Shown in pieces: positions 477-22,106 of a DNA stretch of 32,000 nucleotides (positions are counted from its first letter, which is position 1; the number at the start of each line of letters is the position of its first letter). A program made the translations under genes and the position numbers. The DNA comes from Candidatus Heimdallarchaeota archaeon B3_Heim. Its GTDB lineage: Archaea > Asgardarchaeota > Heimdallarchaeia > Hodarchaeales > Hodarchaeaceae. The notes beneath the pieces are model-generated. The model made no database searches. It worked only from the letters and a program-made list of their open reading frames with translations, and was not told where the DNA came from. Where the stretch lies: the NCBI GenBank assembly GCA_003144275.1, contig NJBF01000035.1, forward strand, positions 9,288 to 41,287. Reading direction: 5' to 3'.

Positions 477-504
477 TCGTCGTCAAACCAGCCTTATCGA
501 TGAT
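477..504 (+). repeat. CCAGCC-core 11-6-11 site S1
   Basis: TCGTCGTCAAA-CCAGCC-TTATCGATGAT. Left arm and core match S2 at 16 consecutive nt (CGTCGTCAAACCAGCC). Confidence 0.75.
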
Positions 505-579
505 TCTTATCAATGGATTTTTCAAAAGAATGTCATTATGCATATATTTTTAGATACCGAAGGACGGAAGAAGAATTAG

Positions 580-686
580 TGAAGCTGGTGGGATTTGAAC
601 CCACGCCCCCCCTTGAGGAACGTGTAAATGTTGCTCAAAATTGCACTTTCCTCAAGGAGGGTGTTCTGCCACTAAACTACAGCTTC
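580..686 (-). tRNA. tRNA-like RNA with extended anticodon arm, anticodon undetermined
   Basis: Minus strand: acceptor GAAGCTG/CAGCTTC plus discriminator A; D-arm GTTT-AGTGGCA-GAAC; T-arm GTGGG-TTCAAAT-CCCAC. The anticodon arm is a ~14-bp uninterrupted stem CCCTCCTTGAGGAA/TTCCTCAAGGGGGG enclosing 27 nt. No CCA encoded. Confidence 0.8.
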
Positions 687-688
687 TC

Positions 689-1723
689 TTAATCATATTG
701 GAATTTCATATATTCCATGATTTCGTGAGATTTAATATTATATTGTTCCTCGGCATATTTAATAAATTTGTTCTTGAATCTCTTCTCTTGATTAGGATCT
801 TCGAAAATATATTTCTTCTTTGTTTTATATTTTTCAAGCACGTGAGCTATAATCGTATCTTTATCTAAAGCTTCTAATACATTTTTATCAATTATAGAAG
901 ATAATTCTCTTATAAGGACTAATATTTCAACCATTTCTGCTTCGTCCATCTTTTCTTTAATCATTTTTGCCTCTTTTTTACCCTTATTTGCTTCTCTTCC
1001 GTTCTTTTTCTGCACTACCTTATGCATAATCGGTTTAGCAAAATTTATGTTGGAAAACCTTTTCTTTTTCTTATTTCTTCTAATTTCACTCCAATATTGA
1101 TTAAGCAAAACACCTTTAGATGAGATTAATTCTGCAAGGGATTTTGTTTGCTTTTTTCTATCATGGACGATATGATTCCTCCTTTTTCTAATATAGTCAT
1201 TTGTGTCAATTATATTTTGATCAAAGCATCTTTGATCTTCACAATCCCTTTCTGGGAAGAGATAATTACTTAGAGATAATAATATGGTATTACATTTCTT
1301 TTCTGGATTTCCTTCTTGAGAATTCGGGTTGACAATTGAGTTTGTTTGAGATCCTGTCCGTATCTTCTTAATGAATTTGAAGAGCGACAATAAATAGTCT
1401 TCAAAAATTGAATACGTAAAAACGAAGGTAGATTCAAATGTAAATTCTCTCGATTTACTAAAATCGGTGTCAAAATCATTAAGTTTTACATTATATTTCT
1501 TAGAACGAGCTATAGAGGAAAAACAATCCTCGGTTAAACAATCAGGTTGAGACTTGATTAGAACCTCATTCTTCATTATGAAAAAGTCTTGAACGAACAG
1601 TGTTAATTGGAGATCTCTGTTGATTTGTGAAATTTTTTTTCTTAATTTCAGAATTTCTTTGGATCTCATTTCTTTCTCATCAACTTCAAATAATATGTGT
1701 AATTTGATAATGTAAAAGCTCAT
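689..1723 (-). CDS. HEPN-domain protein (predicted RNase; RiboL-PSP/MAE_28990-like type)
   Basis: 344-aa ORF with R-x4-H motif (RKRRNHIVH) and an upstream 'YSIFEDYL' motif typical of HEPN folds. Confidence 0.7.
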   Translation of the reverse strand: MSFYIIKLHILFEVDEKEMRSKEILKLRKKISQINRDLQLTLFVQDFFIMKNEVLIKSQPDCLTEDCFSSIARSKKYNVKLNDFDTDFSKSREFTFESTFVFTYSIFEDYLLSLFKFIKKIRTGSQTNSIVNPNSQEGNPEKKCNTILLSLSNYLFPERDCEDQRCFDQNIIDTNDYIRKRRNHIVHDRKKQTKSLAELISSKGVLLNQYWSEIRRNKKKKRFSNINFAKPIMHKVVQKKNGREANKGKKEAKMIKEKMDEAEMVEILVLIRELSSIIDKNVLEALDKDTIIAHVLEKYKTKKKYIFEDPNQEKRFKNKFIKYAEEQYNIKSHEIMEYMKFQYD

Positions 1724-1847
1724 TGGCGAATGGATATTTATTTATTTTTTCTGATAGATTGGGAAGTGATGATTAAAAGACTAGCATTTAGCCTAATTAA
1801 ATGAATCAGAGGAAATATGCATATGAATAAATGGAGATGTTTTCCAT

Positions 1848-2444
1848 ATGTCTAAAATTATAGAAAAATTTCAGCAATTTTCTTTCAGTAAAGAAAAATT
1901 CCTAAAAAGGAGTGAATATAGAAAACTAGATAGGAGATGGAGGGAGATAATCTACAAAATTCCAATTGTTGATAACATCAACGAATTTATTCTCATCAAA
2001 TTCTTACTGCATTTCCAAACTCAAATCAAACAGATACAAAAATTCCCTTTTGTTTTTGCTTATGAATTTCCCATAGATCCAGAAATGAGTAATAAAGGTA
2101 AGTTGGATTTAATTTTAGTAAATCAAGATAAGAATAGAGTTGAATATTTAATAGTTGAGGTAAAATACCTTCAAAATAGGACGGGACCTACTTCTCGTGA
2201 AAGCAGAAGACGGAAACGCCGAAAAGTAGAACAACAGTCTTCGATTAATAGGATAAAATTCCAAGCATTATTCCCCAAAGCAATCGTAAATTCGATATTT
2301 ATAACAAATGAGAGCTTCTCACAAGTGAGAAATTTGCATCAAGAGTATGGAGATTTTGCTGAAAAGGAATGGCAAAAGATCTACAATATCTACCCAGTTT
2401 TGAAGGATCAAAGAATATCTAATGAAGAAAATCCAATAAAATAA
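1848..2444 (+). CDS. PD-(D/E)XK superfamily nuclease
   Basis: 198 aa; motif pattern YEF...GKLDLIL...LIVEVKY...VEQQ (E, D, ExK, Q). Confidence 0.65.
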   Translation: MSKIIEKFQQFSFSKEKFLKRSEYRKLDRRWREIIYKIPIVDNINEFILIKFLLHFQTQIKQIQKFPFVFAYEFPIDPEMSNKGKLDLILVNQDKNRVEYLIVEVKYLQNRTGPTSRESRRRKRRKVEQQSSINRIKFQALFPKAIVNSIFITNESFSQVRNLHQEYGDFAEKEWQKIYNIYPVLKDQRISNEENPIK

Positions 2445-2670: not shown

Positions 2671-2686
2671 ACGTCGTCAAACCAGC
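2671..2686 (+). repeat. Site S2, left half (interrupted by IS)
   Basis: ACGTCGTCAAA-CCAGC. Removing the IS and one CAGC copy restores ACGTCGTCAAA-CCAGCC-TTTGACGGAGT. Confidence 0.85.
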
Positions 2687-3965
2687 CAGTTCTTCGTATC
2701 ACCTCCTTGAAAACTCCTCCTGTCTTCTAAAAAGTGCTTGATGCCATGATGTGACAATGAATTCGCAGAAATCGTTCGCTGAATAAACAAAATCGGCTCG
2801 ACATCGCCGACTAGCTGATTTTAAGATGTGAATCGGTGATTTAAAGTAGGCCCAGAAATTACACAACCAAAATGCAATGAGAACAAGAATGAATCTAAGA
2901 GTTGGGTTTTGAGAACAACTAAAGATTTGAAATCGGTGCATCTGACGATAATAGGTCTCAATCGTGAATCTTCGACGGTAAAGTAAAGCTATCTTCTTTC
3001 CTGAAAGATTACATGTAGTGGGAACAACTAAAGCTATAACACGAGTACCCTCTTGACACAGAGCAAGTTTTACTGGAAATCTCTCGCGGGTGTGACCTTT
3101 ATTCAATTTATAATTCACGATTAGGGCATCCCCTTTTTGAAGTAACTTTTCTTTATGTTTTTGTACTAAAGGTTTGACTCCCGAATTGACACGTCCACGA
3201 ATAATGAAGAAGACCTGTTCACTAACAAGCCACTTAATGAAATCCCAGTTATAGAAGCTACCGTCCGCCAATATTCCAACAATTCGTTCTTGAGTGAGTA
3301 AAGGCATCAAAAGGTTCTGAGCTGTCTTGAAAACAGAATGCTTTGTAGGAACGAGTTGAACCCCTAACGTGATTGGTTCGGGTGCATTTATCCAAATAAC
3401 CGTTATATACTGATAAAATTTATGAGTACTGGCCTTTTTCTTACCTTTACAGATGTAAGGAGAAACCGTCCTTGCATAGTTAGGATCAGTATGAAAATCG
3501 ATCGCTAACAACATTCCTTGCTTTCTTGCGCTTTGAAAGTTCTCGGGAAGACTTTCAAGAAACTTAAGAAAGCCGATTTGTTGTGAGAGCGTAATTTCCT
3601 CAACAGAATTTGTTCTTAACCATGCCAGGGTAGCTTCCCCAGAGGGAATTGGGAGATGTAGCTCGCGAAGATCTCGAGCCTTCCGAGAAATGGAGGTTCG
3701 ATCGAGTGCGGTAAGTAAAAGTAATTTTAACCTGCCTTTCATAGTAAACGGTGATTTAGCAGGAATGGGGGTTGACAAGAATTGAAATCTATCCAACCAG
3801 CGTACCATAAAGTTTATAAGAGTCGGAGTTTTTCTAGCTTTACGTGGCGGAAAGCGAGGTAACTTAAGTTTGGTCATTTGAGTGATTCCTCGCTGGAATC
3901 CACTTTTAAAGGTTTCCCCTCCTTTTTTTTCATCCCGCTCAAAAAAATGAAGTTACGAAGTACTG
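2687..3965 (-). mobile_element. ISH3-family insertion sequence, 1279 bp, apparently intact
   Basis: TIRs CAGTTCTTCGTA (2687-2698) and CAGTACTTCGTA (reverse complement of 3954-3965), 11/12 identical. 4-bp target duplication CAGC (2683-2686, 3966-3969). Contains one DDE transposase. Confidence 0.9.
2699..3877 (-). CDS. ISH3-family DDE transposase
   Basis: 392 aa; motifs LAIDFHTDPNY, ILADGSFY and YRRRFTIETYY (D, D, E triad with YxxRxxIE). The stop abuts the TIR. Confidence 0.9.
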   Translation of the reverse strand: MTKLKLPRFPPRKARKTPTLINFMVRWLDRFQFLSTPIPAKSPFTMKGRLKLLLLTALDRTSISRKARDLRELHLPIPSGEATLAWLRTNSVEEITLSQQIGFLKFLESLPENFQSARKQGMLLAIDFHTDPNYARTVSPYICKGKKKASTHKFYQYITVIWINAPEPITLGVQLVPTKHSVFKTAQNLLMPLLTQERIVGILADGSFYNWDFIKWLVSEQVFFIIRGRVNSGVKPLVQKHKEKLLQKGDALIVNYKLNKGHTRERFPVKLALCQEGTRVIALVVPTTCNLSGKKIALLYRRRFTIETYYRQMHRFQIFSCSQNPTLRFILVLIAFWLCNFWAYFKSPIHILKSASRRCRADFVYSANDFCEFIVTSWHQALFRRQEEFSRR

Positions 3966-3981
3966 CAGCCTTTGACGGAGT
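3966..3981 (+). repeat. Site S2, right half
   Basis: CAGCC-TTTGACGGAGT, identical to the right part of S3. Confidence 0.85.
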
Positions 3982-4044
3982 TCATAAGTTAGAATAATTA
4001 CTTGAGTAGGGAGTGTGTTGAATCCAATCCTATTCGCGAAATTC

Positions 4045-4362
4045 CTAGAACCATTTACTAACCCATTTGTTCAGCCATCTTATCTCAAATAATATTTTCC
4101 CCCAGTGCCAATATCTACGTGGCTTATAGATTTTGACTTGCGGTACAGGTTCCGCATAGAAATTCCCTCTACCAAAACCAGCTTTACCCCCTCCAATTTC
4201 GACAAAACAAGAACCAAAACCATTGTATCGTGTGGTTTTACCTTTTCCAGTTATTTTAACGGCAAGATTATGGGCAAGTACTTCTCTTTGATAATGAGCG
4301 AATACTCCTGCTTTGGGAAGTGGTTTCCCGAGTTTACTACTTTTTCTAAAATTTGGGTACAC
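4045..4362 (-). pseudogene. C-terminal remnant of sulfide:quinone oxidoreductase-like FAD oxidoreductase
   Basis: GKPLPKAGVFAH...GSCFVEIGGGKAGFGRGNFYAEP...WHWGKILFE matches SQR-type C-termini. The N-terminal Rossmann fold and GD motif are absent; only ~100 aa remain. Confidence 0.8.
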
Positions 4363-4434
4363 ATGAAGATTTAAAAATATTCAGTGTTCTGATTGTACAG
4401 TTGTAGCCTTTAATTCTAAAAGGAGAAAAATAAA

Positions 4435-5022
4435 ATGGAAAATTCAAATATTATAGGAAGCTTACTTTTGATTATACTAGTGCCAACAACAATGTTCGTT
4501 GGTATGCCTATTATTTATCCAAGTCTTCAAGCTGACCCCAATTCAACGGGGATTTTAATCCAGGAAAAACATAAATCTGTGAATACAATTGCAGCAATTT
4601 CCGATTGGGCAACGATTTAATATTGTGATGTTCAGGATACTCATTTGGCAATAACTATCCAAAATAATTCTAAAATTCTGGCAATGTTTTCTTCTCCGTA
4701 CTTATTAGTTATATCAGACGACTTTGGACCAAATGAAGCATTAATTTTTAATATCGCATTGAATATTGGTACCGGTACAAAACGAGATACACGAATTGAA
4801 TATACAGAATTAGGAAATGATCTAGCCAGTGCCAGACATATTGGAGGAAATATGTTTATACTCTGTGAAACTGAAAATTTACCTGCTGGGACTTATAATG
4901 TGACTGTATCTTGGATTTCCAAATCTACAGTGAATAATCCTGTTGGAACTAATCAATTACAATTTTCATCCATGTTTCAAAAACCCCAACGAACTTTATT
5001 GGTTCAAGAAATTAAAGGTTAG
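4435..5022 (+). pseudogene. Secreted/membrane-anchored hypothetical protein split by one in-frame TAA (4618-4620)
   Basis: ORFs 4435-4620 and 4645-5022 are in the same frame with an open 24-nt linker (YCDVQDTH). N-terminal hydrophobic segment; AAGGAG SD. Confidence 0.65.
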
Positions 5023-5045
5023 TTTATTAGTTATTTTTAATATGA

Positions 5046-5069
5046 GAGGGTTTTTCCCTTACTTTTTTT
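5046..5069 (+). terminator. Hairpin plus T-tract terminator
   Basis: AGGG-TTTTT-CCCT followed by TACTTTTTTT, just after the 5022 stop. Confidence 0.45.
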
Positions 5070-5256
5070 ATAAATTACTCAAGCAGATTCTTAAATTTTC
5101 ATTAGATTTATGATATTGATATGATCTGATCAGTAATAAATTTCTGATTAGTAATAGATATACAAAAAAAAGGTTATTGGTTCCGAAAATAAAGATTTAC
5201 TACTATCTCGTCCCTAACGAAAGGGAAATGAGTATCTTACTAAAAACGGCGCTGCT

Positions 5257-5420
5257 CCAGTGAGTAATCCGGCTTCTGTTCCCTCTGTTTCGTTACCTTT
5301 ACAGAGTTCCTGACATTAACCTTAGCGCTACTCTCCACAATCTCCGAAGAGATATGTTTTTCAGCTTGCATTCGCTGAGGATGCTCGTTTCACCGTTTCC
5401 CTATTCTTCCTCTGAAGATT
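5257..5420 (-). ncRNA. rnpB: RNase P RNA, 3' half only (truncated copy)
   Basis: Minus strand, in correct order: GGAAACGGTGAAACG (CR-III-like, 5400-5386), TGCAAG, ATCTC-TTCG-GAGAT hairpin, GCGCTAAGGTTAATG (CR-IV-like), CTCTGT/ACAGAG stem, AACAGAAGCCGGATTA (CR-V). No GAGGAAAG-type CR-I upstream. Confidence 0.75.
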
Positions 5421-5423
5421 ATC

Positions 5424-5561
5424 TTATCATCTGTTACCAGTGACTTCACCGCTTCTACTGAGGAACAGACAGCTTCTATGAGTGAAATGACCGATACAGC
5501 TCAAAATCTAACTGAAATGGCTTTAGAATTGTCTAGTCTGGCCTCAAGGTTTAAAGTTTAA
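5424..5561 (+). pseudogene. C-terminal remnant of methyl-accepting chemotaxis protein
   Basis: Translation ...ASTEEQTASMSEMTDTAQNLTEMALELSSLASRFKV* is the typical MCP C-terminus. A pyrimidine-rich terminator follows. No N-terminal part; the 5' boundary is approximate. Confidence 0.8.
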
Positions 5562-5757
5562 ACCTTCCTTCTCTCTTTTCTTTATTATTTCATTTTCAAC
5601 GGAAATGTTTGACGAATTTTCAGAACTAACCTATTCGGGATATTCTGGGCATCTTTTGATGATATTTAAATGAGAAAGCCTAGTAGGTATTCAGAGGTAA
5701 GTTTATCTCTAATTACAATCTCTTTATAGGTTTTTAACTTCAATAGAGGATAAGTAG

Positions 5758-6114
5758 ATGTTTCGGAATCTCCCAATAATAAAACCGATTGAATATACTA
5801 ATAGTCATCTGAAACCTGTTGAAAAACAAAATATTCACCTTTTTTGTGTACAAACCCATCCTGATAAACTCCACCCCATTCCTTTCTCTTCAGAACCATT
5901 GAATGAGGATATGGTTTATCTTTTCATTAATGATGTCTTGCGAAAAATCTTTTTGTGGGTTGGTACGACTGCTTCGATCCGATCCAAATTCGTTGGCGCA
6001 CATTCAGCTATCGTACTCCAACGAAAAACAGGGATTACTTATCGAGTAGAAAATATTGATGAGGATCATGAGTCGGCTGACTTTCGTAGGACTATATCGG
6101 TATTTGAAGCCTAA
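5758..6114 (+). CDS. Single-domain gelsolin-like protein
   Basis: 118 aa; LNEDMVYLF...KIFLWVGTTAS...KFVG...VENIDEDHESADF follows the gelsolin-domain consensus. GAGGA SD. Confidence 0.75.
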   Translation: MFRNLPIIKPIEYTNSHLKPVEKQNIHLFCVQTHPDKLHPIPFSSEPLNEDMVYLFINDVLRKIFLWVGTTASIRSKFVGAHSAIVLQRKTGITYRVENIDEDHESADFRRTISVFEA

Positions 6115-6197
6115 TTAACCACAGAGATTTCTTTCTACAAAAGTGGGAGCTTTGCGTTGTTTATATTAGAAAAAGAATATACTCGGGTATATATTTT

Positions 6198-6225
6198 TCT
6201 TATCTAAACCAGCCTTTGACGGAGT
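6198..6225 (+). repeat. Site S3, preceded by imperfect hairpin 6154-6213
   Basis: TCTTATCTAAA-CCAGCC-TTTGACGGAGT; 21 nt (AAACCAGCCTTTGACGGAGTT) identical to reconstituted S2. Confidence 0.85.
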
Positions 6226-6404
6226 TGGTGAAAAAAAATCATTTTACTAAGCCCTCAAGGGAAAAATAGAATATACAATCTAAGTTTGAACCCCCCTACT
6301 TTTAAGTCTTAATTGTCAAGACGTTGGCTATTACTGAATTTCATAGATGGCTTTATTATTCAGAAAGTATAAAATTGAAGTTGAATAACAATAAGGGAAA
6401 TATT

Positions 6405-6563
6405 ATGTCAAAAAGATTATGTAATACTTGTGAGGAAGAAAAAGGACCTCAAAACGGGAAAGAATGCCCCAATGGTCACTTTATTTGTAAAGATTGCCTC
6501 TATAGTGGAATGATTTTATCAGAACAGCCATTTTGCTCCTTCTGTGGTGAAGCTTTAGAATAA
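6405..6563 (+). CDS. Stand-alone RING-HC (C3HC4) zinc finger protein
   Basis: From ATG 6405 (in frame with track ORF 6324): C-x2-C-x11-C-x3-H-x2-C-x2-C-x12-C-x2-C (CNTC...CPNGHFICKDC...CSFC). Confidence 0.75.
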   Translation: MSKRLCNTCEEEKGPQNGKECPNGHFICKDCLYSGMILSEQPFCSFCGEALE

Positions 6564-6659
6564 AAATGATAATAATCCAATTAACCATTAAACGATGCCT
6601 ACAAGAGACTGAAGAATTTTAGATCTTCCTGTTAACTGCAAACGTTGATTTGGTCTTCT

Positions 6660-7529
6660 TTATTTTCTTTTCATATTCTGGACTTTTATTCGTTTTGTGA
6701 GTTCTTCCGCAAATTTCTTGTCAGTGGACGCGGTCAATCGTTTCATAGTTGTATCATATCCATTGATCTGTTCTTCTTCCAATGTCCTAGAATAGTTTTC
6801 TGACGGATCGATTTCCTCCAGCATTTCAATTAAGGTGTTTCTCTCCTCTTTCGACATGACTCTTGGATCAGTCATAGCTGCTGCTCTAGTATAAATCTTT
6901 TCATCCAATAGGGATTTTAATGCTTTGAAGGGAAGTTTGAAATATTTACCTATGGCACCCGTTACCTGAGTGAAGGTTTCTGGAGTGGCTGCTTTAAATG
7001 ATACTCGTACGTAGAGTTTATCTTTAAATTCAGCTAGTTGCTTCACATAGTTCAAGTCATTACCAAGAAGAATTCCGTTTGTTTCCAGGATGAAAAGAGA
7101 ATACTTCGAGGTCATTATATAAGGCAATAGGGCTAGTAAATGTTCTTTTCCTAACGTTGGTTCACTCCCTGATAAGCGAAGCTTCTCAATTTTGATATTT
7201 TTAAAACGCTGCCATCCTTTAGCAGTAATTCCTTCTTCTGCTGCTTTAAACAACCTCTTTGCTACCTTTTCTGGTGAGTGAAATGATCCATATGTCTCGG
7301 GGAAGTCCCTCGACCAATTCCCCCAACAATAAATACAGCGTAAACAACATCCCACAGCATACCCTGTCGCGATTCCACCATAAACGGGAGCTGAATAAAT
7401 ACTTACATACTTCCTCTCCAATCCCGCAGAACCTGTTCTCGTCACTATCTTCTCTGTTTTTTTTGCCAGCTCTAATGGATCAAACGGTCGAAAACCTGGA
7501 ATCAAAAAACGTTGATACTTGTTCTGCAC
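6660..7529 (-). CDS. Radical SAM protein (archaeal YGGIAT-type, uncharacterised)
   Basis: CxxxCxxC (CCLRCIYCW) preceded by YGGIATG; RLSGSEP motif; GTG start with GGTGA SD. Confidence 0.85.
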   Translation of the reverse strand: MQNKYQRFLIPGFRPFDPLELAKKTEKIVTRTGSAGLERKYVSIYSAPVYGGIATGYAVGCCLRCIYCWGNWSRDFPETYGSFHSPEKVAKRLFKAAEEGITAKGWQRFKNIKIEKLRLSGSEPTLGKEHLLALLPYIMTSKYSLFILETNGILLGNDLNYVKQLAEFKDKLYVRVSFKAATPETFTQVTGAIGKYFKLPFKALKSLLDEKIYTRAAAMTDPRVMSKEERNTLIEMLEEIDPSENYSRTLEEEQINGYDTTMKRLTASTDKKFAEELTKRIKVQNMKRK

Positions 7530-7635
7530 TTAATATCACCTACCTTGAGCTTGTCACAAAAGGTTTTTTTCAAGTAGATTTTACTATGTGTTGGTAATAT
7601 TCCTGTTAATCAGGGTATACTGGCATATATACTTT

Positions 7636-7663
7636 TCCTAGGTAAGCCAGCCATGGACGACAT
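7636..7663 (+). repeat. Site S4
   Basis: TCCTAGGTAAG-CCAGCC-ATGGACGACAT; 18 nt identical to S7 (CCAGCCATGGACGACATT). Confidence 0.8.
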
Positions 7664-7838: not shown

Positions 7839-7867
7839 TGTAAACCGAAGGAGAAATATGAAAAAAA

Positions 7868-9272: not shown

Positions 9273-9284
9273 GGGTTAAAGAAT

Positions 9285-9704
9285 ATGGCATCGGAAGCTC
9301 TCAATCAAAAAACCTTTCCATTAGTAATTCCTATTCTACTAGGTGGAGTTTTAATTTTAATGGGAGGCCTAGGGGTTTATACAAGTGAAAACAATAATGA
9401 AATTTTATTGAGCGGATTCATTATCATACTTGGAACTTCGCTCTTACTCTATTCATTCAGGGAGTTCAAACGAAGACATGAAAACGTCTCAATTATTAGT
9501 CACGATGAGAGATCAATAACTAACAGGTTAAAGGCTACAGATTGGAGTTTTAGATTCCTTTACATCTCTCTAATGGTTCTGATCGTACTAAATGCCATGA
9601 ATCTCCTCAACAATATATCTTTTATTGCTTTAACTGGTCCTATTATTGCAGTAGGGGTTTCTTTACAATATTTTCTGTATTATTGGTATGAGCAGAGAGG
9701 ATGA
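9285..9704 (+). CDS. Membrane protein, DUF2178-like
   Basis: 4 TM segments with '[11 protein letters not shown]' motif; sits upstream of an XRE gene as typical for this family. Confidence 0.6.
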
Positions 9705-13048: not shown

Positions 13049-14902
13049 GATGGGGAAGAAACAGACGCAAGATACATAGCTGACGTTGCTGATATGATTA
13101 CGAACAATCATACACAAGTCCATGTCATTTTATTAGGTGTGGACACAGAAGCTTCTGAACTACAAGAGCTAGCGTATGCTACACAAGGGTCGATTCATTT
13201 TGCTTTTGATCCTGCATCAGGTACTTTAACCTCTGATCTAGCAGATATTTATCGTTCTATCGCAGAGCAAACAACCAATGAACAACGAGTCTTTTCAAAC
13301 TCAGCAGTACTTAAAGGGACTAATTGGAATATAGAGGATTCATTTTCTCTCGACCAAGCGAAAAAAGCTACAATAGTCCTTAACTATAAAGCCAGTTCTC
13401 CTCTTGTTGGGCAACCAGTAGTGGTACAAACGCCTGGAGGTGCAAATATTTCAGCAACGTTTACAGGAGGAAAACAAGGGGTAACAAACTACTATGGCCA
13501 TTACGTTTGGATTTTAAACCAACCTATTGCAGGTATTTACAAAATAATAGTTGGTCAGGGATCAGGAGATATTGAATATTTCACAGAAGCTTCTGTTGAA
13601 GGCCCCGTCTCAATGAATATCTATTTTCCTCTCCCTGATCGACGATCTTTAAAAGAACCTAGTTTAAGAGTAACTGGGTGTGAATTTCCGATTCTTGTGT
13701 CACTTGCTGATGATACTCCTATTATTGACGCTCGTATTAATGCTTCCATTATAACTGGAACGAGTTATACGAATTATGAATCATGGAATTTAATGCTTTA
13801 TGATGATGGACATCATGGAGATGGTTTACCTGCTGATGGAGTCTATGGAAATTGGTTTACAAGGACAATGAACCCAGGAACATATTCTGTCAAAGTTCAA
13901 GCCACTGGATATTCCTCTATTACTGGAGATTTCACGCGTGAAGTAAATCAAGCATTTCATCTAACTCCTGATGAGGATTTGGATAAAGATGGCTTGCCTG
14001 ATGGATGGGAAACACGATTTGGGATGAATACCCAAACTGTGGTTGGTGAAGACGGTGGAAAAGGGGATCAAGACCTTGATGGTTTAGAAAATCTTGATGA
14101 GCTAATGTACGGGACGAGTCCAATAACAGCAGATACAGATCGCGGAGGAGAAAGTGATTTCTCAGAGGTCAATGGCAGTCGTGATCCCTACTTCATGGAA
14201 GATGATAATCTTGTTCTACCCCACTTTCTGGCCATTCCTGGGAACCAGAATGTTACGATTCGATTCCAACCAAGACCTGGAGTAGTCCAATTTAAGCTTT
14301 ATCGTGCTGATAACATTAGTAAAAGCTTTGTGCTTATAGACGATTCGATAGACGCGAGTACACTCGAGTTTATTGATTCTGGTTTGACTAACGGTGAAAT
14401 TTATTACTATCGAATGATTGCTGTGAATTCAGGAGGGGCTGAAAGTGGTTATAGTCCGATAATGAGTGTTATCCCTAGGATTGATACAATTCGACCTGTT
14501 GCATTTGTTTTTATTAACAATGGAGATCAATACACTAATAATCCTACAGTAACATTAAAAATGATCACTAATGAAACAGATATCACACACATGCGAGTTT
14601 CGCAAACATCGTCATTTGAAGGAGGTTCATGGGTACACTTTCAAAATACTATTATGTTCACATTGATGGGTATAGGGCCACAATTTGTATTTGTAGAATT
14701 CAAAGATACGTTCGGGAATATAGGCGGGAATGATCGTGGTATATATGCTTATGATGGAATAATCATTGATCCCAGCTATTCACCCCCAAGTTCATCCAGT
14801 ACTACTCAAAATGCAGATTGGGCTTCTTTCGATATTGTTGTTTATGGGTTGATTATCTCATCAATAATTCTTTACAGGAAGAAAAAGAAATTAAAAAGGT
14901 GA
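13016..14902 (+). CDS. 5'-truncated VWA / CLCA-like surface protein with Ca-binding repeats, FN3-like domain and C-terminal TM anchor
   Basis: VWA second half (LTDGEE, no DxSxS); LYDDGHHGDGLPADGVY (CLCA/choice-of-anchor X-like); DLDKDGLPDGWE repeats; FN3-like YYYRMIAVN; Ser/Thr linker, TM, RKKKK tail. No signal peptide; the first codons derive from the 40-bp repeat. Confidence 0.7.
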   Translation: MREILFFAVLTDGEETDARYIADVADMITNNHTQVHVILLGVDTEASELQELAYATQGSIHFAFDPASGTLTSDLADIYRSIAEQTTNEQRVFSNSAVLKGTNWNIEDSFSLDQAKKATIVLNYKASSPLVGQPVVVQTPGGANISATFTGGKQGVTNYYGHYVWILNQPIAGIYKIIVGQGSGDIEYFTEASVEGPVSMNIYFPLPDRRSLKEPSLRVTGCEFPILVSLADDTPIIDARINASIITGTSYTNYESWNLMLYDDGHHGDGLPADGVYGNWFTRTMNPGTYSVKVQATGYSSITGDFTREVNQAFHLTPDEDLDKDGLPDGWETRFGMNTQTVVGEDGGKGDQDLDGLENLDELMYGTSPITADTDRGGESDFSEVNGSRDPYFMEDDNLVLPHFLAIPGNQNVTIRFQPRPGVVQFKLYRADNISKSFVLIDDSIDASTLEFIDSGLTNGEIYYYRMIAVNSGGAESGYSPIMSVIPRIDTIRPVAFVFINNGDQYTNNPTVTLKMITNETDITHMRVSQTSSFEGGSWVHFQNTIMFTLMGIGPQFVFVEFKDTFGNIGGNDRGIYAYDGIIIDPSYSPPSSSSTTQNADWASFDIVVYGLIISSIILYRKKKKLKR

Positions 14903-15079
14903 AAAATTCCCCGTACCACTTTTAACTTACTTATCACCTCTTTTTATCTGCAAATCCCCCTCTTTTCAGATTGGTGCTATCCAAGTTATCTATTTTATGT
15001 TAGCTAGAGATTCCATATAAGAAACAGAAACGGGTATTTAGACATTTACTTATAAGATTAAAATCTATGTGGAAAAAAC

Positions 15080-15784
15080 ATGGTGTGTATAGAACTAGAA
15101 CCGTGGATAGAAAAACAAATCCCTCCGAATTTGGTAGATCACTTCAAAAATCTACGTAAAGATCAATTAGCATTACAAAAAAGGGTGATTATTGAGGATC
15201 ATCCTTCTTTATCAAGGATTTCCCTCGTGGCGGGTTGTGATGTTTCATATTTTTCTAATGGTGATGCTTGTGCTGGTATAGCGGTTCTAGAAATCCCTAG
15301 CTTAACTCAGGTAGAATATGTGTTCTATATCTACACACCCAAAATTGACTATGTTCCTACATTTCTAGCATATCGAGAGGCACCAGGGATAGTGGAGGCA
15401 TATAAGAAACTACAAAACAAACCAGATCTTATTGTGGTTGATGGAAATGGTATTCTTCACCCTCACAAGTTGGGTATTGCATCTCATTTAGGAATTATTC
15501 TGAATAAACCAACCATAGGGGTTGCCAAGCGACTCTTAATAGGGAGCTTTGATGAACAAATCCTATTAGAAAATAAATTCTCTCCTGTTATGTATAAAAA
15601 TCAAGAAATCGGAGCAGCAGTGGTTACTAATCAAAGCTACAAACCGATTTATATTTCACCTGGAAATCTCCTCTCCATTCAGACTGCAAGATCCCTTATC
15701 TCACGCTATACACGTCAACGTTTACCAGAGCCCATTAGATTAGCAGATAAACTTACTCGAGATACCGTGAAGGATTTAGAATAA
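15080..15784 (+). CDS. nfi: Endonuclease V
   Basis: VAGCDVSY, YVPTFLAYRE, LIVVDGNGILHP, LGIASHLG, PEPIRLAD motifs. Confidence 0.95.
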   Translation: MVCIELEPWIEKQIPPNLVDHFKNLRKDQLALQKRVIIEDHPSLSRISLVAGCDVSYFSNGDACAGIAVLEIPSLTQVEYVFYIYTPKIDYVPTFLAYREAPGIVEAYKKLQNKPDLIVVDGNGILHPHKLGIASHLGIILNKPTIGVAKRLLIGSFDEQILLENKFSPVMYKNQEIGAAVVTNQSYKPIYISPGNLLSIQTARSLISRYTRQRLPEPIRLADKLTRDTVKDLE

Positions 15785-15823: not shown

Positions 15824-15851
15824 CAAAAACTAAACCAGCCTTTTACGGAGG
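15824..15851 (+). repeat. Site S6
   Basis: CAAAAACTAAA-CCAGCC-TTTTACGGAGG; right arm 9/11 identical to S2/S3. Confidence 0.7.
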
Positions 15852-16002: not shown

Positions 16003-16686
16003 TTGGTTGTGAAGATTCTGACAGAAGATTATCCATTTATTCCTTATTTTCCGGAGACTATTGTAGAAGAAGAAATGATGACTAGGTCAAGAGGTTTCTA
16101 CCACCATGCAAATAAGCGTCGTTCGATTCGACATTTTTCTAATCGACCAATTCCTAGGCAAATCGTTGAAAATATTGTTAGAACTGCTGGAACTGCACCC
16201 TCAGGAGCGAATAAACAACCTTGGACTTTTGTTGTGGTTTCTGATCCTAAACTTAAATCGAAGATTCGAATCGCTGCAGAAATCGAAGAAAAAGAATTTT
16301 ATAAACGTAAAATTACTGATGAATGGCGTAAAGACCTAGCTCCATTAGGTACTGACTGGAAAAAACCTTATTTGGATATAGCACCCATCATTATTGTTGT
16401 TTTCCGACAAGTTTACTCTTTTGATACAAATAAAACTAAACGAAAGCATTATTTCGTAATGGAAAGTATAGGGATAGCTGTTGGAATGCTTATTACTGCG
16501 ATTCATAATTCAGGCTTAGTGACACTAACGCATACCCCCAGTCCAATGAAGTTCCTACGGGAGATATTAAAACGTCCTATCAATGAAAAACCATTTGTAT
16601 TAATGCCCGTTGGTTACCCTGCTGAAAATGTAACTGTACCCGATATAAAAAGGAAAAAACTCTCTGAAATACTAGTGTGGAAATAA
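16003..16686 (+). CDS. Nitroreductase family, iodotyrosine deiodinase-like
   Basis: RRSIRHFS, TAPSGANKQPW, AAEIEEKEFY, LVTLTHTPSPM and PVGYPA match the IYD subfamily. Confidence 0.85.
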   Translation: MVVKILTEDYPFIPYFPETIVEEEMMTRSRGFYHHANKRRSIRHFSNRPIPRQIVENIVRTAGTAPSGANKQPWTFVVVSDPKLKSKIRIAAEIEEKEFYKRKITDEWRKDLAPLGTDWKKPYLDIAPIIIVVFRQVYSFDTNKTKRKHYFVMESIGIAVGMLITAIHNSGLVTLTHTPSPMKFLREILKRPINEKPFVLMPVGYPAENVTVPDIKRKKLSEILVWK

Positions 16687-16942
16687 TCTTTTCTTAAAAA
16701 TGGTGTACTTGGATATTTTGAACTATAAGAACGGGATATTTATTATTGAATATATTCTTGAATTTATTTAATGTCTTTTATTGAAATTGCTTTTTTCTGG
16801 TTCTCTTCAGATAAACCTTGGAATAATCTGTAATTGAATAAATATTAACCAATAAATTGATACCCATTCTTAGTGGAATATTCACAAATCTGTAAATTAC
16901 ACAGTAGGCTAATCTATGCAAACAGAAAACACTTATTAGTCA

Positions 16943-16973
16943 TTGTCTTACAATTCAACCGTTTTGTCTTACA
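16943..16973 (+). promoter_or_regulatory. Candidate NikR operator
   Basis: TTGTCTTACA repeated at 16943 and 16964 (21-bp spacing) directly upstream of an operon that ends in nikR. Confidence 0.4.
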
Positions 16974-17008
16974 CATGAAAATTCCGACATATGAAAGGCG
17001 GAGAAGAA

Positions 17009-17692
17009 ATGCATATACCTGATGGTTGGGTTGATCCTTTTTTTTTAATGATCACCTGGATCGTGACAATTATCATTATCATGGCAAGTATTAGAAAAAT
17101 GAAAGATATTGATGAAACAAGATTGACTTACATGGCAGTTCTTGCTGGAACTATTTTTGCTGCTCAAATGTTGAACTTTCCGATTCTTGGCGGTACTTCT
17201 GGGCATCTTCTAGGAGGTGCTCTTGCTGCATCAATTGTAGGTTTATGGGGTGGGTGTTTAGTCATCTCTGTGGTTTTAATCATTCAGGCCTTCCTTTTCG
17301 CTGATGGTGGGATAATTGCCCTTGGAGCCAATATTTTTAATATGGCTATTGTTGGAGTTTTTGTAGCGTATCTAATTTTACGTTTTTTTATGATCAATAA
17401 AACTCCTAAAAATCGATATCGATACTATGGAGGAGTATTTTTAGGTTCATTCCTCTCAGTAATAATAGCTTCCGTTTTTGCAGCGATAGAAATAGGAATT
17501 CCAGTAATAAATAGTGTATCACAAGTAAATTTTGCGGACTCCTTCTTGATTATCTTATTCTATCACTTACTGATTGGTATTGGAGAGGGGATAATCACAC
17601 TCATAATTGTGAGTTATTTCAATACTATTCAAATGAATATATTTTTTGAGATTAATAATCCCTCAACTACCCACAATTTTTCCAAAAGGTAA
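17009..17692 (+). CDS. cbiM: ECF Ni/Co transporter S component CbiM/NikM
   Basis: Starts MHIPDG if ATG 17009 is used (metal-binding N-terminus); GTSGHLLGG and GIGEG motifs. Confidence 0.9.
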   Translation: MHIPDGWVDPFFLMITWIVTIIIIMASIRKMKDIDETRLTYMAVLAGTIFAAQMLNFPILGGTSGHLLGGALAASIVGLWGGCLVISVVLIIQAFLFADGGIIALGANIFNMAIVGVFVAYLILRFFMINKTPKNRYRYYGGVFLGSFLSVIIASVFAAIEIGIPVINSVSQVNFADSFLIILFYHLLIGIGEGIITLIIVSYFNTIQMNIFFEINNPSTTHNFSKR

Positions 17693-17698
17693 TAGAAA

Positions 17699-18004
17699 AT
17701 GGAGAATCGTTCGAAAATTTTGATTGGATCAATATTTATTGTCATTCTTATGCTTACCTTGAGTCCATTTGCTGATCCTAATCCTGATGGTTTAGAAAGC
17801 GCTGCCGGCGAGGGAAACTACGAAGGAAGTGCATTTGATTTAGGCTTCTTAACCGATTATGGATCTGAAGACTCGCTAATTTATCAATTGATCCAGAATG
17901 ACATGATAGCAACCATTGTTTCCGGTTTAATTGGAGTAATTATAGTTGTTTGCTTATTCAGTCTACCTCTTCTATTCTTACGAATAAAAAAGAGCAATTC
18001 TTAA
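17699..18004 (+). CDS. PDGLE-domain ECF accessory component (NikN-like)
   Basis: FADPNPDGLE motif, two TM segments. Confidence 0.85.
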   Translation: MENRSKILIGSIFIVILMLTLSPFADPNPDGLESAAGEGNYEGSAFDLGFLTDYGSEDSLIYQLIQNDMIATIVSGLIGVIIVVCLFSLPLLFLRIKKSNS

Positions 18005-18802
18005 ATGACAGATATACACCATTACTGTAGTGCTCTACGGACTCAGAAGCAAGTATTAGATATTAGGAGTAAGCTTATCGGCTTAGTTCTTATTGTCCTT
18101 GGATGTTCATTCCTTGTTGATTTCTCTCAAGTCTCCTGGTATGCAATTCTTCTTCTCCTTCTCGTCCTCATTTTAAAGCCTCGAAAGACATTTTTAAAAC
18201 AAATTGTTTTAACACTCCCTTTGATTATTTCACTATCACTCATTTCATTTTTTTCTTTTGATCCTCCAACTTATAGCAATTTTTTGTTTGAAGCAACACA
18301 TAACAAAGTTTCATTTGCTTTTTTTACTGCTTTTCGTAGCATTGTAATTATCTCCTACATCTTGGTGATCGTTAGTTCTGAGGAGTCATTTTTCGAAATT
18401 ATTTACGGGTTAGATGATTTAAAATTTCCAGGGTTACTTACAAACTTGTTATTTTTAACCTATCGTTTTTTTAGTCTTATCCAAGAGGAATTTTCGCGAA
18501 TTTTAGATGCTCGTTCGAATCGAATGTATAGTGAGAGTCCTATCATGCAATTAAGATCATTAAAACTTATCGGTAACATTTTAGGAGCCTCACTTGCTCG
18601 ATCGTTTAAACGCGCTGAATACATTTCAGCTTCGTTGTCTGCAAGAGGATTTTCAGGCACCAGTAAATTCTCTCATCCCGAAAAACCATGGACACGAAGT
18701 GGTTTCTTATTTGTTATCTTTACAACAAATATCAGCATTTTTATTGGATTTTATGGACAGAATTCACCTATTGATTTGCTTTTAGGATTGTTATTCCTAT
18801 GA
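18005..18802 (+). CDS. cbiQ: ECF transporter T component CbiQ/NikQ
   Basis: Hydrophobic; LTYRFF...ARSNR and RAEYISASLSARGF motifs. Confidence 0.9.
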   Translation: MTDIHHYCSALRTQKQVLDIRSKLIGLVLIVLGCSFLVDFSQVSWYAILLLLLVLILKPRKTFLKQIVLTLPLIISLSLISFFSFDPPTYSNFLFEATHNKVSFAFFTAFRSIVIISYILVIVSSEESFFEIIYGLDDLKFPGLLTNLLFLTYRFFSLIQEEFSRILDARSNRMYSESPIMQLRSLKLIGNILGASLARSFKRAEYISASLSARGFSGTSKFSHPEKPWTRSGFLFVIFTTNISIFIGFYGQNSPIDLLLGLLFL

Positions 18803-19509
18803 AATTGGATTCAGAATACGCATTGAGTGTACGTAATTTAAGTTTTAAATATATGAAAAACCAGCCTGAGGTTTTGAGGAACATTTCTGTTAATTTTCCT
18901 CTTCATAAAATCACAGCTATTGTCGGGCCTAATGGATCAGGTAAGACTACTCTGATGAAGCATTTTAATGGCCTTTTTTTGGCTCAAAATGGTGAAATCT
19001 TCGTAAACGGCCAAGTTCTAACTAAGAAAACTCGTAAAACCATTCAAAAACAGATTGGTATTGTTTTTCAGAATCCAGATGAACAGATTTTTTATCCAAA
19101 AGTCTATGATGATGTGGCATTTGGCCCAAGGAATATGAACTTGAGCATAGCTGAAATCCATGAAAGAGTCGTTCAAGCTGGAAAATCAGCACATATCTCA
19201 CATTTAATGGATCGAATCACTTTCAATTTGTCCTTTGGCGAAAAAAAGAAAGTAGCTTTTGCTGGTATCTTAGCTATGCGACCTGATATACTTGTATTAG
19301 ATGAACCCACCATCGGTATAGATCCATGGTCGAAAAACCATTTTATTACTCTCATCAGATCTTTTAGCCCTGAAAAAACAGTGATAGTAATAACCCATGA
19401 TTTTGAAATAATGAAATTTGTTGATTACATTATACTAATAAAAGAAGGCGAAGTAAAGGGTAAGTATACTGACTTTAACTCCTTTTTTCAAGAAGAATTT
19501 GCTAATTAA
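18799..19509 (+). CDS. cbiO: ECF transporter ATPase CbiO/NikO
   Basis: GPNGSGKTT, VFQNPDEQIF, LSFGEKKK, LDEP. Confidence 0.9.
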   Translation: MKLDSEYALSVRNLSFKYMKNQPEVLRNISVNFPLHKITAIVGPNGSGKTTLMKHFNGLFLAQNGEIFVNGQVLTKKTRKTIQKQIGIVFQNPDEQIFYPKVYDDVAFGPRNMNLSIAEIHERVVQAGKSAHISHLMDRITFNLSFGEKKKVAFAGILAMRPDILVLDEPTIGIDPWSKNHFITLIRSFSPEKTVIVITHDFEIMKFVDYIILIKEGEVKGKYTDFNSFFQEEFAN

Positions 19510-19518
19510 GGTGATTTA

Positions 19519-19935
19519 ATGACTTTAAAAGAAATTCGTGAGACAATTACATTTTCTTGTGATCCACGATTCAAAAAATTACTCTCTACAAAGAAGCAAG
19601 AATTTGGATATCAAACCAAATCTCAAATGATACGGGATGCACTAAAATACTTTTTCGATTCAGAAAAGATGCTAGAGAAGATTTCTGATACTGATATGAT
19701 CGTAACATTGATTTCAGTAATTTACAATCATCATGATTCAACTACACTAGAAGAATATTTGCGTGTACAACATCAATCTAATGTAACCTTCTCTTCACAT
19801 TTTCATCTCTCCTCTGGAGACTGTATTGAAATTTTAATGATAAATGATCAAGCAAAAAACGTTAAAAAGCTAATTCAAGAGTTACGTGGCATTAATGGTT
19901 TGAAAAATATATCTTTCAAATTAAACCTTATTTAG
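19519..19935 (+). CDS. nikR: NikR-family nickel-responsive regulator
   Basis: N-terminal ribbon-helix-helix; YNHH, QH, HFHL and DCIE metal-site pattern. Confidence 0.8.
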   Translation: MTLKEIRETITFSCDPRFKKLLSTKKQEFGYQTKSQMIRDALKYFFDSEKMLEKISDTDMIVTLISVIYNHHDSTTLEEYLRVQHQSNVTFSSHFHLSSGDCIEILMINDQAKNVKKLIQELRGINGLKNISFKLNLI

Positions 19936-20650
19936 CGGAGTTGGAGGATTTTATCTTTAAGGCTCTTCTTGAAAGCAATCGATCCAGATTCGGGAAATCT
20001 CAAAGTAATTTCTTCCCTGTTAACAAGAATTTTTCGTACTTCAATTGAAATCTTTTCTTCCTCATTCTCTATAAACGGAATGACCCGATCACGAGGAATG
20101 GATTCAAGCCCTTCAAATCCTGCTCCACTTAATGCCTGATAACTACTGACATAAACGTTTTTAATTTGTTGAACTTGTCTGATCTCATTTAATAGCATTG
20201 CAAGTCCAGAAACAGTACAATTAGAGTTTGTGACAATAAATCCATTATTATTAAACGAATCTTGATGTGTAATGATCTCAAGATGTTTAGCATTTATTTC
20301 AGGTATTAAGATAGGAACTTTTGGTTCACAGCGATGCGCAGAAGCATTTGAGAAAACTGGTCTCCATTCTGGGCTAATTTTAACTCAATATCTTTTGCTA
20401 TTGATGCAGGGAGTGCACTGAACACTATATCATAACTATTAGGGGTTAAATTACGAAGTGAACTCAATTTTAAATTAGCAAACATATCTGGAATTTCAAA
20501 TGACGGCAAGTTCCATTTACTCTTGAGTGATTGACCCTCAGATTTATCTGATGCAACCACTTCTGTTAATTCAAAATATGGGTGTGTATCTAAAAGCCGT
20601 ACAAATTGCTGTCCTATTAACCCTGTCCCTAATATAACGCAACGTTTCAC
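19932..20650 (-). pseudogene. asd: Aspartate-semialdehyde dehydrogenase, frameshifted and 3'-truncated
   Basis: GTGLIGQQFV...HPYFEL start. A 1-nt deletion near 20362 (GGA GA CCA GTT) shifts the frame; the second frame reads PVFSNASAHR...TNSNCT...YQALSGAG. Similarity ends near 20000. Confidence 0.85.
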
Positions 20651-20864
20651 TTGTTGTACTCCTATCTTTAAGTTATTTAGCTCAATTCAACACGATCAGT
20701 TCCTAGTACAGATACTTAAATTAACATTTTTGTCTTCTACTTAAATATGTGGTGAATTTTTGCCTTGATGTTCGTAGAAAACAGAAATGTCTTGTATTTT
20801 CGAACAATAATTCATACCAATAACGATATATACCAAAAACGGTATATGTTTCTCCTGATGAAGC

Positions 20865-22019
20865 ATGAAAATACAAGAAGAAACTATACAACAATCATAC
20901 TCTAATGCCTTGAAACGAAAGAAATACAACTCAGAGTCTTCCTGTTGTGCACCGCAGACTCAATCTCAGAGCTGTTGTCCTCCATCAACAACATCAGGCT
21001 TAAATGAACCTGTTTCATTTGGATGCATATATTTAAAGCCTATTCTGATGGATTACATTGAACAAGGAATGACTGTTATTGATTTGGGCTCAGGTGCTGG
21101 TCATGATCTCATGATAGCAGCAGAGCTAGTAGGGCCAAATGGTAAAGCTATTGGTGTGGATTTTACTGATGATATGATTAGAGAGGCAAGGGAGAATGCC
21201 CAAAAAAATAATCATTCTAATGTCACCTTAGTGAAGGCAAATATAAGAGATATTCCTCTTCCTGATAATAGTGCAGATGTAATTATCAGTAATTGTGTCA
21301 TCAATCTTGCCTTAGATAAAAAACAGGTGTTTAATGAAGTATTCAGATTGTTAAAACCTGGTGGAATTATGATAGATGCAGATGTCATCGCAACTAAACC
21401 TTTAAGACGTGAAATTAGAGAAAATTCCAGTCTGTGGTGTGGTTGTGTTGGAGGGGCACTTACTAAAGATGAACATAAAGAAATATTGAACAAAATAGGA
21501 TTTACAAATATATCTGTAAAACTTGGGGAAAAAGAGGAAGTTCAATTCGAAGCACCTGAACTAATAGTCGAATCTGGAATAATTCTAGCAATAAACCCGA
21601 TGAGTGAGAGAATGAAATATTCCTGTTGTAATCTTACTTCTAAGGAAGTTGAAAATCTAGCCAATCCTGAACTCCCAGATGAACTCGGGATTAGAATTTT
21701 AAAAACTGTAGGTCATCCTTTAAGATTAAAAATCCTGCGTCTACTCTTAAATCAGCAAGAATTATGTACTTGCGATTTAACTTCGGTGTTTGAAGAACAA
21801 CAACCAATTATTACGAAGCAATTGGCAAGATTAAAGGAGGAAAATTTGATAATTGGACGTAAGATAACTTTTAGTAAAGAAGGATTGATGGAATCAAAAC
21901 TAAATGGAAAATGGACTGCCTATCGGATCAACCCTGATAAACATGAATTCCTAACCCATCTTCTTTCTCCTTTTATTTCATCTCCGCAAAAGCGAGCAGA
22001 GAATAGGTGTGACTGTTGA
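20865..22019 (+). CDS. arsM: Arsenite methyltransferase (ArsM) fused to C-terminal ArsR-type HTH
   Basis: DLGSGAGHD SAM motif, SFGC, SNCVINL, WCGCVGGAL, N-terminal CC pairs; then GHPLRLKIL...ELCTCDL...QPIITKQLARL...GKWTAY (ArsR/SmtB). Confidence 0.85.
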   Translation: MKIQEETIQQSYSNALKRKKYNSESSCCAPQTQSQSCCPPSTTSGLNEPVSFGCIYLKPILMDYIEQGMTVIDLGSGAGHDLMIAAELVGPNGKAIGVDFTDDMIREARENAQKNNHSNVTLVKANIRDIPLPDNSADVIISNCVINLALDKKQVFNEVFRLLKPGGIMIDADVIATKPLRREIRENSSLWCGCVGGALTKDEHKEILNKIGFTNISVKLGEKEEVQFEAPELIVESGIILAINPMSERMKYSCCNLTSKEVENLANPELPDELGIRILKTVGHPLRLKILRLLLNQQELCTCDLTSVFEEQQPIITKQLARLKEENLIIGRKITFSKEGLMESKLNGKWTAYRINPDKHEFLTHLLSPFISSPQKRAENRCDC

Positions 22020-22078
22020 TATTTTAAATTTACAATTAACGGTGGATTCATGAAGGAATATACCCTGGTATATATTTT

Positions 22079-22106
22079 TGTAATCTAAACCAGCCATGGA
22101 CGACAT
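22079..22106 (+). repeat. Site S7, preceded by imperfect hairpin 22041-22091
   Basis: TGTAATCTAAA-CCAGCC-ATGGACGACAT; last site seen in the window. Confidence 0.85.

Follow-up and report, generated by a model that had tools for sequence, protein, structure and literature searches.

A cassette-type array with probable crossover sites around a CCAGCC core in an Asgard archaeon of the Hodarchaeales

The array and the closest described systems

Integrons and CALINs (clusters of attC sites without an integrase) have been reported in Asgard archaea (Ghaly et al. 2022, PMC9668308). Here we analysed a stretch of 32,000 nucleotides, hereafter the window, from Candidatus Heimdallarchaeota archaeon B3_Heim (contig NJBF01000035.1; G000:C84:9288-41287 in our handles, where G, C and L stand for genomes, contigs and loci), whose genome comprises 3.95 Mb in 103 contigs with 36% G+C. 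The window holds seven short sites, S1 to S7, which share the 6-bp core CCAGCC and separate mutually unrelated genes. No paper describing the CCAGCC site was found in the literature, and the array, of cassette type, has not been described before from an Asgard archaeon. We consider it probable that crossover takes place at these sites, as part of a site-specific recombination system by which cassette arrays are assembled and reshuffled in this genus.

As in integrons and CALINs, short co-oriented sites form arrays around mutually unrelated cargo, each of one or a few genes (toxin-antitoxin systems, transporters, enzymes), the cassettes are common to several species in different orders, and most arrays have no nearby integrase. 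Unlike the attC hairpin of 57-141 nt with its R''/L''/L'/R' boxes, the CCAGCC site is a simple duplex of arm, core and arm; the crossover would fall at CCAGCC instead of G|TTRRRY, the cargo lies on either strand, and there is no IntI save a frameshifted fragment in this genome. The site-bearing contigs are absent from the Asgard CALIN contigs in the supplement of PMC9668308. Single-strand folds of four sites, on both strands, gave no attC-like hairpin (z-scores −2.6 to +1.1): the sole structure was a local TATATAC hairpin, and the sites with the GGTGTTAAT arm were unstructured.

IMEX elements and the pdif modules of Acinetobacter plasmids are site-bounded modules that use a housekeeping recombinase encoded elsewhere, and in CIME-type tandem accretion integrase-less, att-flanked elements accumulate at tRNA or tmRNA genes. 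The array resembles the latter in its rows of small modules, with direct repeats between them and no recombinase of their own; it differs in that the site is not the end of a tRNA or rRNA (no Rfam stable-RNA match in eight array loci) and no single conserved anchor gene is present. In a separate observation, contig C65 (L019, L020) carries two orphan copies of the 23S rRNA end (~250 nt) with its trailer, a sequence unrelated to the CCAGCC site. The orientation of pdif sites alternates, whereas the R-type sites described below are all direct repeats within a locus. The array in part recalls Xer/dif systems (archaeal XerA/dif, PMC2958812), with an apparent 11/12-6-11/12 geometry around an asymmetric 6-bp spacer, and a XerA ortholog is present. 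Its arms, however, differ from those of Pyrococcus dif, mostly one arm only is good, and each genome holds several perfect palindromes with different spacers.

The sfx site of the shufflon, in IncI plasmids, combines one variable arm with a short core and a second arm of 12 bp, the latter two conserved, and is bound asymmetrically by the tyrosine recombinase Rci (PMC11852207). The CCAGCC site shares this layout. In the shufflon, however, the sfx sites are inverted, the inversions occur only within the 3' end of one gene and rci is adjacent, whereas here direct repeats extend over many kb and bound genes or operons, with no linked Rci-like gene. Aloposons (PMC8813620), giant-gene transposons at tRNA sites, were considered and are unrelated. 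Thus, the array is like integrons and CALINs in function, like sfx in layout, and possibly like Xer modules in the use of a housekeeping enzyme, and it does not fully fit the definition of any of these families. The integron/pdif-like identity first proposed for the array is not supported: attC hairpins, IntI and alternating orientation are all absent.

Anatomy and distribution of the site

The original prediction described seven sites on the + strand, and all of them were located (Table 1). The motif AAACCAGCC has seven copies in the window, all on the + strand, where 0.15 were expected, and 0/100 shuffles reached seven. Six copies belong to S1-S3 and S5-S7, while S4 reads AAG ahead of the same core; the copy at 18858 was rejected as a site, as it lies without arms within a cbiO-like ABC ATPase gene and is attributable to chance. 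S2 is interrupted by an insertion sequence (IS) with 12-bp inverted repeats (CAGTTCTTCGTA / CAGTACTTCGTA), and removal of the IS restores ...GTCGTCAAA-CCAGCC-TTTGACGGAGT with perfectly inverted arms, so that the description of S2 as a clean inverted-arm site was correct. The IS itself was discarded as the agent of the array, having unrelated ends, a 4-bp duplication and a second copy, on contig C103, outside any site. The prediction was also right that no site follows after 22.1 kb, where the region right of S7 is syntenic with a related genome that lacks a site at that place.

The arm consensus was built from 61 P-arm and 37 G-arm sites. On the right, CCAGCC is followed by a conserved arm of 12 bp, TTTKACGRMRTT. 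The left arm is variable and falls into three classes: in the P class, two GTATATAC palindromes, TTTT and two variable bases precede TATCTAAA; the G class reads GGTGTTAAT; and the L class reads AATGTCGTCAAA, an inverted copy of the right arm. The palindromes are absent from G-arm and L-type sites. S3, S4, S5 and S7 have in common two GTATATAC-type palindromes located 12-35 bp left of the core, and their conserved element is therefore ~60 bp long. The site length of 28 bp originally given is too short for these four, where the palindromes extend the site leftward.

An arms-only search returned a spacer of 6 bp in every case. The core had been described as invariant, which is not strictly so: CCAGCC was present in 44/55 P-arm (TCTAAA-arm) sites, ten of the other 11 being off by one or two bases and one unrelated, and in 19/22 G-arm sites. 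No 6-mer except CCAGCC recurs ahead of the arm in this genome.

Within a locus, R-type sites, with the conserved arm on the right, were co-oriented in 84/84 cases, across the 29 loci holding at least two sites. L-type sites, which have the strong arm on the left and a variable right flank, are present in 11/22 genomes and lie on the strand opposite to the array in 14/14 cases, S1 of the window being the exception; therefore, the strong arm keeps one polarity and the core alone is flipped. The labels of attI-like head and attC-like cassette-end sites proposed earlier were not supported by this comparison. Indeed, the left arm of S1 and S2 is the inverted conserved right arm, and L-type sites, being common in the genus and on the opposite strand, are therefore not array heads. 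Most array sites have one good arm only; besides S2 and G018:C82, full inverted arms were found in 17 other palindromes, which carry other spacers. In total, 114/128 sites (~89%) do not lie deep inside an open frame, i.e., they are intergenic, and their spacing has a median of 2.3 kb (interquartile range 1.25-3.7 kb, minimum 63 bp). Leaderless open reading frames (ORFs) starting from the ATG after the core were considered and rejected, as all three frames close within a few codons.

A further stretch of ~28 nt, TGAGATGTGCGCGAAATTTTATTTTTCG, is conserved at window positions 13011-13038, where it abuts a TATATAC palindrome and reads toward the 628-aa gene. The same stretch is found in G013 (L007, near 730-760 and 12850-12880), inverted and just left of two sites. 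This arrangement suggests that the stretch is a shared 5' leader driven by a palindromic TATA box, or else that an inversion went through the palindrome.

The pattern AACCAGCCWTKKACG was found in 13/21 other species of the genus, always in same-strand clusters, with 0 matches for the reversed control. In the loci fetched, the site family counts at least 128 unique sites. The other families searched gave no site save one single match, and the bacterial matches were singletons consistent with chance. Viral contigs, searched with three site patterns, gave nothing or only coding and chance matches, and the metagenome scan for full sites gave high-GC chance matches only. From these searches, the site family appears to be confined to this genus. 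In the present genome the composite site is limited to six contigs (C84, C22, C103, C4, C20 and C48), mostly near contig ends; C22 and C103 are short, and C4, C20 and C48 carry the left arm GGTGTTAAT. The sites are thus clustered and co-oriented both here and in the relatives, as the original prediction would have it, rather than scattered in both orientations.

Probable exchange points, candidate enzymes and rival explanations

A total of 114 sites with 300-bp flanks were compared, giving 24 informative pairs. Seventeen pairs share the downstream flank only and seven the upstream flank only, and the edge of identity falls at the core or up to 4 nt right of it, even in pairs with different left-arm classes, which share only the core and the arm consensus. 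Homology edges that fall at the core across 24 pairs therefore argue for site-specific recombination and not for a promoter motif or an IS end. In the main the original prediction is supported: the array is co-oriented, its sites have an apparent 11/12-6-11/12 geometry with probable exchange at the 6-bp core, and modules differ in their order between species.

Modules for ABC-2 exporters, Cbi/NikR, endonuclease V, PIN and DUF3368/UPF0175 are flanked by sites in several species with differing neighbours; the orientation of a module relative to its sites is kept between species, with the genes inside on either strand. The S4-S5 cassette of the window corresponds to G018 6496-4229, which lies between two sites, with 92% DNA identity. 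Cbi/NikR is exactly site-bounded in G013, and in G013 and G020 endonuclease V makes up a cassette by itself. Empty units, in which a right arm is joined to a left arm with no cargo in between, measure 63-73 bp and are present in G000, G020, G003 and one metagenome contig. In G007:C63 (L025:2864-3022, 7519-9161) we also observed a 160-bp unit and a 1.6-kb GNAT unit with both ends in common, bounded by inverted cores (GGCTGG ... CCAGCC), which look like an invertible or deletion-derived cassette pair.

The cargo reaches 11 kb and includes operons, some of them for metal uptake, as well as genes of DNA repair. Among its transport and metabolic functions are ABC-2 exporters, CbiMNQO-NikR, MgtE, nitroreductase, methyltransferases and aspartate kinase; endonuclease V, TPR and beta-helix proteins, LVIVD proteins, a C25 peptidase and HerA-NurA are also found, together with toxin-antitoxin-type genes (PIN, DUF3368/UPF0175, nucleotidyltransferase pairs). 

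On the basis of these comparisons among genomes, we infer that recombination takes place at the sites. A cassette extends from the right arm TTTKACGRMRTT across the cargo to a left arm, either TATCTAAA with two GTATATAC palindromes ahead of it or GGTGTTAAT. With exchange in or at the core CCAGCC, left and right arms therefore assort freely, in the mixed combinations noted at the outset. A tyrosine recombinase acting in trans would have a high affinity for the conserved 12-bp arm and a low one for the variable arm, like Rci at sfx. Direct repeats would allow excision and integration of cassette circles, and sites with a flipped core would give inversions. If the enzyme needs identical spacers, exchange would be possible among CCAGCC sites and not between these and the solitary palindromes, whose arms are the same and whose spacers differ. 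The TATA-like palindromes may serve as portable promoters.

The original prediction placed the recombinase elsewhere, and indeed in no genome did we find a recombinase gene on a contig that carries sites. This genome encodes a XerA ortholog (PDB 4A8E, E = 1.4e-58), as do 20/21 relatives, and XerA is the only near-universal tyrosine recombinase in the genus. G013, with at least 12 sites, has no PF00589 match besides XerA, and the same is true of G003 and G005, with fewer sites. One serine recombinase is encoded in the present genome, on an unrelated contig. The proteins that recur in ~100 site-bearing loci are all cargo, none being a recombinase or a transposase. XerA is the best candidate enzyme, proposed tentatively and with less than an even chance of being the right one.

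The search for IntI with TIGR02249 returned a single fragment, on C77, which is truncated and frameshifted and scores 185.8 bits against a cut-off of 265. No IntI-like match was found in the other 21 genomes of the genus, the best TIGR02249 matches (93-97 bits) being XerA-type genes. The fragment on C77 (L140:6991-9400) keeps the integron-specific insert. Within a frame of 773 aa it is the C-terminal portion, and the N-terminal 570 aa, unrelated to it, are joined in frame; the frameshift lies near 9290. The fragment is followed by an IS21-like element (IstA 522 aa, IstB 249 aa) with repeated ends, and it may be the 'In0' of the Hodarchaeum metagenome-assembled genome (MAG) described by Ghaly et al.

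The arms of the site also occur around other spacers. Perfect palindromes of the form GTCGTCAAA-N6-TTTGACGAC number 18, in 11/22 genomes of the genus (control 0), and 0 in 49 genomes from other genera of the class; in the present genome there are seven copies at up to two mismatches, against 0 in the control. Three palindromes with the spacer CAAGAC are coding, and others are intergenic at conserved places. One example is a perfect 9-6-9 palindrome between radA and pyrF in G017:C56 (L165:3788) and G008:C23 (L167:4986), with identical arms and the spacers GAAGGA and CTTGGA; a role as dif-like site, operator or terminator hairpin is conceivable. A single conserved dif was rejected as the explanation of the solitary palindromes: a genome holds several of them, in differing contexts, and the three CAAGAC copies lie in coding sequence. 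Since the palindromes are genus-wide, including species without CCAGCC arrays, the arm is the predicted binding site of a genus-wide protein, and CCAGCC would be one spacer class that spread as a cassette junction. If the arms bind the enzyme and the spacers must match, as in the logic of tyrosine recombinases, XerA is the most economical candidate; a genus-specific unlinked recombinase or a DNA-binding regulator is a possible alternative. A 9-of-11 match of TCCTATCTAAA to the right arm of P. abyssi dif is in the wrong register relative to the crossover and was treated as coincidence.

Several observations weigh against site-specific recombination by such an enzyme. In all 22 genomes the PF00589 matches lie on contigs without sites, and no recombinase is linked to an array; the MAGs are incomplete, and a dedicated unlinked recombinase could have been missed. 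The Pyrococcus-like dif pattern stays at control level, and a transcription factor could equally well use the solitary palindromes as its operators. Two near-complete genomes, G010 and G015, have XerA and no CCAGCC sites. In some intervals of the window, cassettes are fused and sites have decayed, so that the array may in part be a fossil. Neither a circle junction nor two strains that differ by exactly one cassette were observed. Public runs covered small shares of the window, as contigs only, and the uncovered parts are uninformative. The sole read-level hint comes from a metagenome contig (run X1, depth 5.8) that matches the window up to 13010, where a canonical left arm and core then replace the 628-aa gene. 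This gene has no cover in run X1, and other X1 contigs match the neighbouring genes at ~99%, which hints weakly at a strain-level difference at the site.

The lack of an integrase on every array contig, the mutated core in about a fifth of the sites and the fused cassettes of the window are also what would be expected of fossil scars of serial integration, where integrase-bearing elements stacked at one site and lost their integrases, leaving relics similar to CIME-like tandem accretion; L-type, R-type and full sites could then be read as attR, attL and attP. We regard this origin as unlikely: at least 13 species share strongly conserved arms and core, the same cassettes appear in new contexts with breakpoints at the core, and the 14/14 opposite orientation of L-type and R-type sites is unlike an attL...attR arrangement. 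Moreover, genomes, viral contigs and metagenome contigs yielded no element that pairs a full site with an integrase. 

Still less probable is that the site is a shared promoter with its 5' leader, or a regulatory or insulator module, and that shuffling is a by-product of homologous recombination between ~60-bp repeats. TATA-like palindromes do lie ~25-30 bp upstream of the core in S3, S4, S5 and S7, the gene directly downstream of each window site is always on the + strand, and a palindrome at 13000 stands directly ahead of the 628-aa gene. However, GGTGTTAAT-arm and L-type sites have no palindromes, and in the relatives roughly half of the genes downstream of a site are antisense, the sites being co-oriented regardless of gene direction. 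Breakpoints are at the core instead of being spread over the repeat, the shared core and one arm are too short for homologous recombination, and the empty units have two cores 63-73 bp apart. Transposon or miniature inverted-repeat transposable element (MITE) ends, with terminal inverted repeats TTTGACGACATT / AATGTCGTCAAA and CCAGCC as the duplicated target, would account for a strong arm beside the same 6-mer in both orientations, and there is an IS within S2. This explanation is highly improbable, given that the strong arm has one polarity per locus without inward-facing pairs, that no transposase recurs in the arrays and no Y1 transposase or RAYT gene exists in this genome, that cargo as long as 11 kb includes operons, and that the IS in S2 shows the unrelated ends, 4-bp duplication and external copy described above.

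Crossover at the CCAGCC core therefore remains the explanation that we favour. The fuller proposal has a somewhat less than even chance of being right: a platform unknown until now, in which XerA or an unrecognised genus-specific recombinase would capture, excise, invert and reorder cassettes at simple duplex sites with one binding arm in common, the spacer would set compatibility, and many cassettes would carry their own palindromic TATA promoter.

Cargo of the window and significance

The features of the window are listed in Table 1. The tRNA-Leu(GAG) gene was missed by default ARAGORN and found by Rfam and by the intron mode of ARAGORN. A tRNA-derived att site was rejected: S1 lies 75 bp from this gene but outside the tRNA, and no Rfam RNA was found in eight array loci of relatives. 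The 344-aa protein has the motif RRNHIVH (Rx4H, HEPN-like); neither it nor the PD-(D/E)XK-like protein has relatives in the other loci, and they may form a defence or toxin pair. P0001 and P0002 were discarded as array-head recombinases, as both are unique to the locus and P0001 has no relevant PDB match.

Table 1. Sites, insertion sequence, tRNA gene and cassettes of the window
Feature	Position	Strand	Description
S1	477..504	+	L-type: strong arm TCGTCGTCAAA left of CCAGCC, right arm degenerate
S2, left half	2671..2686	+	Strong arm ACGTCGTCAAA and CCAGC of the core; full palindromic site with 3966-3981
IS in S2 core	2687..3965	-	1,279 bp, DDE_Tnp_1 transposase of 392 aa, 4-bp target duplication CAGC
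S2, right half	3966..3981	+	Duplicated CAGC, C, then right arm TTTGACGGAGT
S3	6198..6225	+	P-arm site; two TATATAC-type palindromes ahead, ~6174-6196
S4	7636..7663	+	P-arm variant (GGTAAG), right arm ATGGACGACAT
S5	9959..9986	+	P-arm site; homology to the G018 cassette stops exactly at its core
S6	15824..15851	+	Left arm degenerate, palindromes absent
S7	22079..22106	+	Last site; borders conserved region 22229-31581
tRNA-Leu(GAG)	580..686	-	36-nt intron at 37/38 forming a long helix; within S1-S2
S1-S2 cargo	689..2444		344-aa protein 689-1723 (-), 198-aa PD-(D/E)XK-like protein 1848-2444 (+)
S2-S3 cassette	3982..6197	+	Small ORFs including a gelsolin-repeat protein
S3-S4 cassette	6226..7635		79-aa Cys-rich protein (+), radical-SAM protein (-)
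S4-S5 cassette	7868..9916	+	ABC-2 exporter, four genes
S5-S6 interval	10285..15784	+	Second ABC-2 exporter, 628-aa protein, endonuclease V
S6-S7 interval	16003..22019		Nitroreductase, CbiM/N-like/Q/O and NikR, aspartate-semialdehyde dehydrogenase fragments (-), ArsR-fused methyltransferase

The gelsolin-repeat protein of the S2-S3 cassette (5758-6114, + strand, 118 aa, Pfam E = 2.2e-6) places a eukaryote-signature domain in a mobile-looking context. The S5-S6 interval apparently consists of two or three fused cassettes; as for decayed sites inside the array, none is left before endonuclease V or cbiM. The aspartate-semialdehyde dehydrogenase fragments (19932-20650, - strand) are of 88 and 114 aa, and a full-length gene (347 aa) is present in a G013 cassette (L007:2705-3748); the window copy is therefore a pseudogene remnant. 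Right of S7, positions 22229-31581 are collinear with contig C25 of G001 at 74-81% DNA identity, and upstream of the aminotransferase G001 has a different gene and no site. Left of S1 there is a glycan-synthesis cluster without sites, for which no ortholog block was found in the five genomes tried.

Hodarchaeota-type Asgard archaea are among the closest archaeal relatives of eukaryotes, and gene flow in Asgard archaea matters for models of the origin of the eukaryotic gene set. To our knowledge, few mobile-element mechanisms are known for this group. The CCAGCC site provides a concrete, sequence-defined candidate for such a mechanism in Hodarchaeales, with more than 100 sites in at least 14 species and precise exchange points. 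The site also explains the breaks of metagenome assemblies in these regions and allows them to be recognised. If confirmed, the system could offer a recombination tool with spacer-defined compatibility classes. If the proposed reading is true, the cargo of the platform includes operons and at least one eukaryote-signature gene (gelsolin), and the archaeal lineage nearest to eukaryotes would have found a second, independent solution to the integron problem of cassette capture and reordering.

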